From: Verrucomicrobiota bacterium
GTDB taxonomy: Bacteria; Verrucomicrobiota; Verrucomicrobiia; Limisphaerales; AAA164-E04
Reading direction: 5' to 3'
Length of the DNA: 64,000 nt
Assembly (NCBI GenBank): GCA_047947115.1
Contig: CP170459.1
Coordinates: 3,072,001-3,136,000, forward strand
A model generated the notes under the pieces. That model saw nothing but the letters and a program-made list of their open reading frames with translations, had not been told where the DNA came from and did no database searches. Both the position numbers and the translations under genes were made by a program. This document shows, piece by piece, positions 41,869 to 43,342 of the stretch (positions within the stretch are counted from its first letter, which is position 1; each line of letters begins with the position of its first letter).

Positions 41869-42810
41869 TTAGTGTCCTGCTCTGGGATCGCCTTTGAAGT
41901 GGAAACGTGTTCCACCCAGTATTTGGTCCGACGTGACGGTGGGGCACACAAATTTTTCGATGTGTTCCACGATGAGTTCTGTCCCTTTGAAATGATCGAC
42001 ATATGGCCACATCTTGGGGTTATACATCGTGTCGGTCATATCACGCATTAAAACCACGTTTTTGCCGTTTTTGGCCATTTGCCTCAGTCCGAAGGGACGT
42101 CCTAAAACACACATGTTGGTGTGGACCCCGAGCAGGATGACGTTTTGAATGCCATGTTGTTCGAGTAGGTTCCATACCTCAATGCCATCATCGGTGATGG
42201 CGTCTTTTTCATCGATCTTCAGGGCGTCCACCTGACGGACCCATGGGGCTCCCGGGTTGCGTCCAATGCTTTCAAGATATGTTGCCCATTCTGCGTGCTC
42301 GACCAGATCATCGTCTTCGCCTCCATCGGATTGATCGATCGGATAGACACCTTGTTCTTCGCTGGGGATGATGTAGCACCAGGATTCAATCTGTTCGGGC
42401 AGGTTGGCGGCTTTGGGGGCGGATGCTGCCTTCAATCGTCCTGGGTGGCCTTTGTAGAAATCCATGCAACTGCTCGGTGCGTGGATGATCAATGCTCCGG
42501 CGTCACGTGCCTTGATCAGTACATCGTTCATGCGGGGGGCCATTTCGCCCACACGGGTGACGGCGTTTTTGCAGTGATGAAGATCCCACATATCGCACAC
42601 TATGACCGCAGTTTGCTTTGGATTCCATGATTCCCTTGTTTCTTTAACGACATAGTCAAGGCCCGAGGTGGGTGCTTTCTGTCGGTCTCGCAGGGTCATT
42701 TCAAAATTGCCTGCTGCCTGTGTCATGGTGGATAAGGAGAGCCAAAGTGTCAGTGCCAGGGTGCCAGGGCGCACGCCTTCTTTGCGAAAAGGAACGAAGG
42801 TGGAGTTCAT
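41869..42810 (-). CDS. Isochorismatase/cysteine hydrolase family protein, likely exported
   Basis: TAVIVCDMW and GVHTNMCV (catalytic Cys); hydrophobic leader. Confidence 0.8.
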   Translation of the reverse strand: MNSTFVPFRKEGVRPGTLALTLWLSLSTMTQAAGNFEMTLRDRQKAPTSGLDYVVKETRESWNPKQTAVIVCDMWDLHHCKNAVTRVGEMAPRMNDVLIKARDAGALIIHAPSSCMDFYKGHPGRLKAASAPKAANLPEQIESWCYIIPSEEQGVYPIDQSDGGEDDDLVEHAEWATYLESIGRNPGAPWVRQVDALKIDEKDAITDDGIEVWNLLEQHGIQNVILLGVHTNMCVLGRPFGLRQMAKNGKNVVLMRDMTDTMYNPKMWPYVDHFKGTELIVEHIEKFVCPTVTSDQILGGTRFHFKGDPRAGH

Positions 42811-42865: not shown

Positions 42866-42914
42866 ACAAAGAAGATCCGGCAGCTGAGTGGATCTATAAG
42901 ATTCAGCTGCCGGA
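42866..42914 (-). terminator. Intrinsic terminator hairpin
   Basis: 12-bp perfect stem TCCGGCAGCTGA/TCAGCTGCCGGA followed by TCTTCTTTGT on the minus strand. Confidence 0.7.
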
Positions 42915-43055
42915 CGATGATTAAATCCCTCATCTCAAGCAGGACACCGTGTAAACCCGGTGCGTTGTAAGCCTAAGTGGTCGGGTTTCTTCCGTTCCGA
43001 TACGGAAGAGGCTGGGCATGTGAGCGAACCTGTTGTCTCTCACATGTGATCCACG
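42866..43055 (-). ncRNA. Candidate sigma54-dependent structured RNA (sRNA or attenuator leader)
   Basis: Bounded by a -24/-12 promoter and a terminator; four internal hairpins; no convincing ORF. Confidence 0.55.
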
Positions 43056-43065
43056 CTCCTATTAC

Positions 43066-43081
43066 AGCATGATTTGTGCCA
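43066..43081 (-). promoter_or_regulatory. Sigma54 (RpoN) -24/-12 promoter
   Basis: TGGCAC-AAATC-ATGCT with GG-N10-GC spacing. A TGTCA-N8-TGACA dyad at 43142-43159 is a candidate activator site. Confidence 0.7.
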
Positions 43082-43240
43082 TGCGCAAATTCTTGTTTAA
43101 AACTCATTAAAATCGCGAAAAAACGGGTTTTTACGAAGAGTTGTCACAGAAAGATGACATATGTTATCGGCAAATCCTTCCTCGATATGAGGAAAAAGTT
43201 TCAAAAAGGGACAATATGGCCTATCTGAGACAATGACGCC

Positions 43241-43276
43241 AAAAAAACGCCGTGATGGGAGTTATCATCACGGCGT
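43241..43276 (-). terminator. Intrinsic terminator of the prepilin-like gene
   Basis: ACGCCGTGATG/CATCACGGCGT stem followed by a T-run on the minus strand. Confidence 0.85.
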
Positions 43277-43342
43277 CGTGGTAAAAGATGATTTTATGTT
43301 GAATCGCAGGGGGCTACAGTATGCTGGACATCACGTCCTCAA

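Follow-up and report, generated by a model that had tools for sequence, protein, structure and literature searches.

We identified a stand-alone RNA gene of ~190 nt, folded into four hairpins, which is common to most of the genomes searched in one Verrucomicrobiota order, taken here to be Limisphaerales, and which apparently represents an undescribed, order-wide family of small RNAs (sRNAs). In the 64,000-nt stretch of DNA analysed (the window), from a 6.08-Mb Verrucomicrobiota genome, the RNA unit occupies ~189 nt of the minus strand (43054-42866). A preliminary description of the window had proposed a new, isolated sRNA with a sigma54-type promoter at this site, and a check of the sequence found every element it listed in place, including the upstream gene's own terminator, which isolates the unit. 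The proposal has held up: promoter and stems are conserved, rpoN is present, and contigs from RNA sequencing runs fit the ends of the unit. The features of the locus are as follows.

43240-43277, minus strand: terminator that closes the upstream prepilin-type gene and isolates the RNA unit
43142-43159, no strand assigned: TGTC-N10-GACA dyad, a possible local enhancer, not conserved as such
43066-43081, minus strand: predicted sigma54 -24/-12 promoter box (sequence and conservation)
42866-43054, minus strand: small RNA of ~189 nt, 5' end predicted to +/-3 nt, folding z -4.68
43040-43054, minus strand: leaderless GUG start and 4-codon mini-ORF (VDHM-stop), translation predicted
43017-43046, minus strand: hairpin P1, -11.3 kcal/mol, variable in sequence, its base covarying
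43010-43016, minus strand: linker L1, C-rich, with a near-invariant CC (conservation)
42988-43009, minus strand: hairpin P2, 8 bp, -10.3 kcal/mol, loop with a conserved UC(A), compensatory changes in 8/8 pairs
42964-42987, minus strand: linker L2, an A-run and then YCYRCY-type C-rich repeats, predicted to pair partly with the core here
42944-42963, minus strand: hairpin P3, compensatory changes in 7/9 pairs (as first described, 42962-42945, -7.0 kcal/mol)
42932-42947, minus strand: 16-nt core, invariant in its own family, candidate seed or protein site
42934-42916, minus strand: fourth, 'GGA' hairpin of the preliminary description, -2.8 kcal/mol, weak
42868-42915, minus strand: intrinsic terminator hairpin with an unusually conserved GGCG/CGCC stem and a U-tail (covariation and conservation)
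42888-42894, minus strand: terminator loop GAUCCAC, complementary to the 5' GUGGAUC (43054-43048); the pairing would cover the start codon

By themselves, neither the dyad nor the promoter word is commoner in this genome than chance predicts (three promoter words against 3.0 expected; nine copies of the dyad, like other spacings), so the case rests on comparison between genomes. A BLAST search with 361 nt against 61 genomes gave nine strong non-self matches (79-86% identity), eight of which span promoter to terminator only, and eight weak 3' matches, picked from the weak ones, proved full-length once aligned. Conservation around the RNA stops at the promoter on one side and at the terminator on the other. 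A covariance model free of the promoter found three further families among 151 genomes of the order. A second model, built from 20 sequences and including the promoter, found the RNA in 91 of the 151 genomes at E<=0.01 and in 89 at E<1e-6 (seven of these 89 being training genomes), nearly always as a single copy (weak second matches in three genomes only), and in none of 150 genomes from other orders. A third model (R3) recovered it from 48 of 80 further genomes of the order; outside the order, R3 matched 11 of 131 genomes, all at <=25.5 bits and many as short, terminator-only matches. The RNA was not found in about 40% of the order genomes searched, and these misses may reflect incomplete assemblies or filter losses. 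One genome of the order has two strong copies (G196:C1:3198-3396 and C35:137916-138113).

Several looser matches were set aside. A weak second match in this genome (E 0.075), having neither promoter nor terminator, was rejected, and of a promoter-plus-core pattern that hit 28 of 401 genomes, several chance matches were dropped on inspection. Among the matches listed for the exact 16-nt core in GTDB contigs, most were chance, and the titled records with the full RNA were Verrucomicrobiota, including Pedosphaera sp. and Limisphaerales. One 3' pattern had no match in viral contigs. In keeping with the claim of a new sRNA, the covariance-model search of Rfam 15 matched no known family: there was no match at E<=10 in the window region, and none over the RNA at 12/12 diverse homolog loci. 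The portions of the literature consulted describe no regulatory RNA of Limisphaerales/Pedosphaerales, the supplement of a 50-genome ncRNA survey (PMC11109978) aside; in that survey, the main text as consulted has no occurrence of 'Verrucomicrobia'.

The genomic setting of the RNA varies. An hscB-like J-domain gene lies directly upstream, on the same strand, in 46 of 100 aligned loci (for example L195 and L212), and the site behind this gene is probably the ancestral location; in this genome the RNA sits behind the prepilin-type gene instead. In one other genome a tRNA lies 100 nt downstream of the RNA (L191:1811-1882).

The fold is both stable and conserved. A 201-nt stretch containing the RNA folds at -76.4 kcal/mol, and none of 200 shuffles folds as well; in 20 sampled homologs the mean folding z is -4.6, and homologs have a median length of 185 nt. 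When 20 sequences are aligned with plain MAFFT, compensatory change is seen in 28 of the 33 pairs of the four hairpins, a figure matched by 0 of 500 shuffles, the structure having been derived from the same 20 sequences on which covariation was counted. Sliding the structure along this alignment lowers the paired share from 94% to 33-39%. All 33 pairs covary in 100 model-aligned homologs (an alignment fitted to the model), and the top mutual-information pairs all fall within the four hairpins. The covariation check on homologous intergenic regions thus finds the stems conserved and covarying.

Three of the hairpins first described, together with the terminator, are borne out, and the fourth, with GGA in its loop, is weak and limited to the family: its pair probability is 0.14, against about 0.99 for an extension of hairpin 3 that competes with it, it is compatible with 18 aligned family members (94% of cells paired), and it is absent from the helices that covary across the order. 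Besides the stems, conservation extends to the CC before P2, the C-rich linkers and the GGCG/CGCC terminator stem; the P2 loop has UC in 96 of 100 homologs and UCA in 69, and a G/U-rich word precedes the terminator in about half. The 16-nt core has one variable column among 18 family sequences and drifts across the order, and the prediction for this genome has L2 paired with it, which would hide the repeats. A tRNA-like or pseudoknot fold and a pairing of the P2 loop with the core were also considered and found no order-wide support.

Contigs from the locus appear in public RNA data. A 1-kb stretch is partly covered by 20 metatranscriptome runs from 16 studies; of the four runs examined among the 21 listed, one has a 197-nt contig covering 43057-42866 and a second a 167-nt contig covering 43037-42871, at a depth of 12, the other two contigs of that run being at 2-3, while the remaining two (X16 and X17) have no cover over the RNA. 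Both RNA contigs end at the terminator. They fit a discrete RNA with its own terminator, a weak hint given that assembled contigs give neither strand nor true ends.

The sigma54 box is found in 18/18 family homologs located by BLAST and directly upstream in 3/3 distant matches of the promoter-free model, which constitutes an independent test of the promoter because that model lacks the box. TGCT is kept in 94 of 100 homologs found with the promoter-containing model, as part of a conserved GG-N10-GC box that lies about 12 nt upstream of the 5' end. The preliminary description had made its promoter claim hinge on rpoN, which is present in this genome and in 147 of the 151 order genomes; this genome also has eight full-length activator domains. 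With the box conserved and rpoN present, transcription of the RNA is very probably driven by sigma54. Elsewhere in this genome, three high-scoring sigma54 boxes have no long ORF starting within 260 nt (C1:2550671+, 501221- and 1453532-), and could possibly precede further small RNAs or long leaders.

The enhancer is less uniform. As a conserved element, the TGTCA-N8-TGACA dyad did not survive comparison, being present in 1 of 100 upstream regions; a variant with an N9 spacer occurs in 32 of 100, against 9 in downstream controls, the order as a whole is enriched in related dyads with spacers of 8-9 bp, and a 17-bp dyad matrix holds out of sample (10/26 vs 0.7). This palindromic matrix does not fit glnK promoters (27% vs 36% in the control), and the link to glnK appeared only with a matrix trained on glnK promoters. 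That motif, trained solely on glnK-type sigma54 upstream regions (20/21), reaches 10 bits or more in front of 30 of 100 RNAs, against 1.2 in shuffles, and of 10 of 26 new RNAs, against 0.1; its background in this genome is 89 of 4080 gene-upstream windows (2.2%). The other 70 homologs have no site of at least 10 bits, and the region upstream of the RNA in this genome reaches 3.1 bits only; here the motif marks the PII and amtB promoters, not the RNA. With the enhancer at about a third of the RNAs and not at this one, induction by nitrogen is on balance probable for the family, and less so in this genome, where it is uncertain because a strong glnK-type site is missing. The closest protein in a search for NtrC scored 496 bits, under the 559-bit cut-off.

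The 18-bp enhancer itself, CTG.tCAAAA...aCAg, stands at 20 of 21 glnK-type sigma54 promoters across the order (L331-L360). Its sites in this genome are C1:3480627-, 5457812+, 4022594+, 5953189- and 4359811-, and three further genes behind it presumably encode an ATP-grasp protein, a sugar-phosphate phosphatase and a phosphofructokinase.

An isochorismatase-family gene starts at 42810, 56 nt past the RNA terminator, and the preliminary description, calling it a cysteine hydrolase, had offered attenuation of this gene as an alternative. More generally, the RNA might be a cis-acting leader-peptide attenuator or a riboswitch controlling the gene downstream. Such a reading could draw on the co-directional downstream gene in this genome, on the possible pairing of the C-rich motifs with the GGCGG arm of the terminator, and on a likeness of the leaderless short ORF plus terminator to mycobacterial leaderless attenuators, as described in the part of 10.1101/834739 consulted. 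The comparison between genomes points the other way. Only 3 of 100 aligned loci have this gene behind the RNA (5 of 18 in its own family), and under a crude longest-ORF rule the downstream ORFs are convergent in 61 of 98 loci. Of the 83 of these 98 ORFs that were sent to Pfam, 15 that looked redundant being left out, 57 matched about 40 unrelated families. Antiterminator pairings show no covariation (L1-arm z -1.2, L2-arm z +1.8), and the RNA contigs end at the terminator rather than running on. As the downstream genes vary and are often convergent, the RNA is not an attenuator: that reading is largely refuted, keeps only a very low probability, and action in trans is very likely.

The preliminary description missed what lies at the very start of the transcript, a leaderless start codon and ORF. 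ATG (83) or GTG (11) stands 8-16 nt past TGCT in 94 of 100 homologs, against 21% of shuffles, with 75 homologs having it at 11-12 nt, and the frame stays open for a median of 39 codons. Codons 3-30 hold 22 stops in frame, against 98 and 57 in the other two frames. In 33 disjoint pairs, leaving out ORFs under 25 codons and the 10 genomes of the RNA's own clade, dN/dS is 0.63 in frame, against 0.94 and 0.84 in the other frames. Translation of the ORF is likely outside this genus. In all 10 genomes of this and its sister genus, a GUG 10-11 nt past the box opens 4-7 codons only; in three of these 10, a start 2 nt further upstream opens a frame of 35-41 codons.

These counts bear on whether the locus is mainly a small-protein gene, that is, a sigma54-dependent leaderless mRNA for a peptide of ~39 aa with hairpins that stabilise the message. 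A start codon in 129/136 sequences, a modal length of 39 codons, the lower dN/dS in frame and a set of recurring residues all speak for it. The details of the frame speak against it: 23 of 35 ORF indels are of 1 nt, 9 of 33 pairs have fallen out of frame by nt 90, the third-position excess is slight and invariant bases sit at codon third positions. The one peptide tested had no family or Atlas match, and in the 10 genomes just described the GUG at 10-11 nt opens no more than 4-7 codons. From these codon patterns the peptide appears weakly constrained, and we consider a small-protein gene quite unlikely; the shrinkage of the ORF in this genus argues that the RNA function is primary.

Leaderless starts are seen elsewhere in this genome. 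Four long ORFs begin with ATG or GTG exactly 11 nt behind sigma54 boxes (C1:4175937+, 4311334-, 1041135- and 390631-), and genome-wide there is a peak of -10 boxes 6 nt ahead of ATG (131 vs about 38), from which leaderless translation looks common here. Some 95-130 nt upstream of the sigma54 leaderless gene at C1:4311334 (-) is a perfect inverted repeat whose 17-bp arms are separated by 4 nt. At L187, a sigma54 box is followed by the near-leaderless ATG of a protein ORF, which we take to be FliW.

The preliminary description had also pointed out that the 5' GUGGAUC is complementary to GAUCCAC in the terminator loop; this complementarity is present, and the pairing covaries. In 69 representatives under 70% identity, the 5' end pairs with the apex of its own terminator at -3.86, against -3.19 for permuted partners (z -3.7, p 0.0005), the best long-range result of 36 tests. 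Five core pairs of the contact are kept in 87 of 90 cells, with one compensatory change, and of the 23 RNAs with a RUGGA 5' end, 20 have a UCC loop, 10 of these 20 being one family, against 3 of the other 77; 58 of the others have GNRA-type loops. Column-wise covariation in 100 homologs gave no long-range pair. Two further candidates, the P2 loop with the terminator arm (p 0.0075) and the 5' end with L2 (p 0.006), fail correction for the 36 tests.

The linkers are marked by a C-rich motif. YCYRCY occurs 1.71 times per RNA in the linkers, against 0.43 in shuffles, with at least two copies in 56 of 100 RNAs, and UCCY 1.73 times against 0.81; the counts come from related sequences, so the enrichment overstates independence. 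Anti-Shine-Dalgarno words are barely enriched (0.36 vs 0.24), and GGA is depleted (0.29 per RNA vs 0.43 shuffled). With GGA depleted and no match to CsrA in this genome, a GGA/Csr role is not supported. CsrA is found in 80 of the 151 order genomes and is missing from 36 of the 89 RNA-positive ones, this one included; the RNA is no Csr antagonist. Hfq was found in none of the 151 genomes, and ProQ was not found in this one. This genome encodes KhpA/B-type KH proteins, a single RRM protein and two proteins of the Rho family, the genes with a Rho RNA-binding domain lying at C1:4133449 (609-codon open frame) and 5683554 (419 codons). Among 2831 ATG-started ORFs of this genome, Shine-Dalgarno cores are barely enriched (10% vs 7%). 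The 16S rRNA has a normal anti-Shine-Dalgarno tail despite this little use, and glnK start regions across the order (L331-L360) are A/C-rich.

The RNA could also be a base-pairing sRNA that works independently of Hfq, in the manner of RsaE, its C-rich repeats and 16-nt core pairing with G-rich sites of several mRNAs; it would perhaps be chaperoned by KhpA/B and be a nitrogen-regulated, dual-function RNA like sRNA154 or NrsZ. The family-invariant core looks like a seed, UCCY is enriched as given above, RsaE works through unpaired UCCC without Hfq (in the part of PMC2790875 consulted), and NrsZ, induced by NtrC and RpoN, acts post-transcriptionally (PMC4253122, likewise in part). Other results speak against it. 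Shine-Dalgarno motifs are scarce here, and start sites show no enrichment of sequences complementary to the repeat. The 9-mer complement of the core occurs in only 10 of 4080 start regions, none compelling, and mRNA target prediction in this genome was uninformative, with no target emerging. A comparison over 29 genomes gave the RNAs no advantage with their cognate glnK start regions, so that glnK is not supported as a target, and pairing of the G/U-rich word with A/C-rich start regions found no support either. We regard base-pairing as somewhat unlikely. With Hfq and ProQ missing, Shine-Dalgarno use scarce, no target emerging and KH, RRM and Rho-family proteins present, titration of a protein is favoured over base-pairing, at a little under even chances.

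A further reading takes the RNA as a partner of the ribosome or of RNA polymerase (ribosome-parking or 6S-like) rather than a specific regulator, which would suit its single copy, order-wide occurrence, fixed length and 5'-end start codon, as well as its contig being the deepest of three in one run (12 vs 2-3). Its shape does not suit it: 6S RNA (RF00013) is a long duplex with a central bubble, whereas this RNA has four local hairpins and no such rod. In addition, about 40% of the order genomes searched lack a detected copy, and a separate 6S candidate scores 44.3 bits in this genome (L188; C1:1157649-1157830, minus strand), just under the cut-off of 46.4. This reading is very unlikely.

Ranked by probability, titration of a protein comes first, followed by base-pairing, a small-protein gene, a ribosome or polymerase partner and, last, attenuation. 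Our tentative model is thus of a trans-acting, sigma54-dependent and probably nitrogen-responsive RNA that titrates an RNA-binding protein and is gated by translation, its functional steps being inferred. An activated enhancer protein would drive a burst of RNA from the sigma54 promoter. A ribosome would load at the 5' AUG and cross P1, P2 and the C-rich linkers, with the peptide mattering little. Once made, the terminator would close over the start codon with its loop, or make the contact through a GNRA-type loop. This would shut off ribosome loading, and the compact RNA that results would bind a protein through its YCYRCY copies; KhpA/B-type KH, RRM and Rho-family proteins are candidates. 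Put differently, a throw-away ORF would be read over the C-rich sites until capture of the start codon turned a mini-mRNA into a protein-titrating regulator. Such a ribosome-gated switch, of undescribed design and reporting translation capacity under nitrogen starvation, order-wide and without Hfq, is a speculative idea to which we give a low probability.

Known sRNAs share parts of this design, the closest in presumed action being the sigma54 decoys GlmY and CrcZ and the nitrogen-linked sRNAs NrsZ and sRNA154. CrcZ is a sigma54-driven decoy RNA that titrates a protein, and CANAANAA repeats and Hfq are features of CrcZ/CrcY; in contrast, our RNA has 0 CANAANAA repeats per RNA, and there is no Hfq in the 151 genomes. 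GlmY resembles the proposed RNA in being driven by an enhancer protein and sigma54 and in titrating a protein, and the GlrR consensus, TGTC-N10-GACA, is the dyad first described here (PMC3045617, in the part consulted). Our RNA differs from both in that the N10 dyad is not conserved and in having a 5' ORF, none being described for GlmY or CrcZ in the portions of the sources consulted. NrsZ of Pseudomonas is likewise stand-alone, with an RpoN promoter under a nitrogen activator and repeated motifs, but comprises three similar, processed modules with a purine-rich loop motif (PMC4253122, in part), whereas our RNA has no Rfam match, its four hairpins are unlike one another, its linkers are C-rich and it carries a leaderless ORF. 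RsaE-type sRNAs are Hfq-independent, with unpaired C-rich repeats (PMC2790875, in part); here the motif is YCYRCY rather than UCCC, the host barely uses Shine-Dalgarno sequences, the promoter is of sigma54 type and Rfam gives no match. From the part of PMC12612679 consulted, sRNA154 of Methanosarcina mazei is also multi-hairpin and nitrogen-linked, with a leaderless short ORF, but it is archaeal and not sigma54-dependent, its 20-aa ORF is highly conserved and its mRNA targets are known. PhrS of Pseudomonas aeruginosa is similar as an sRNA of ~200 nt with a conserved ~37-codon ORF of unknown role, and differs in being ANR-controlled and from another phylum, while our RNA has no Rfam match (PMC12612679, in part).

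Which function of a dual-function RNA came first is an open question, according to the part of a review consulted (PMC12612679). Here, an open frame has been kept without a well-conserved peptide and lost in one clade, and the terminator loop covaries with the start, making the family a natural experiment on dual-function RNA. As an order-wide, single-copy sigma54 RNA in bacteria with no Hfq match and little Shine-Dalgarno use, it offers a handle on their post-transcriptional regulation and nitrogen response.
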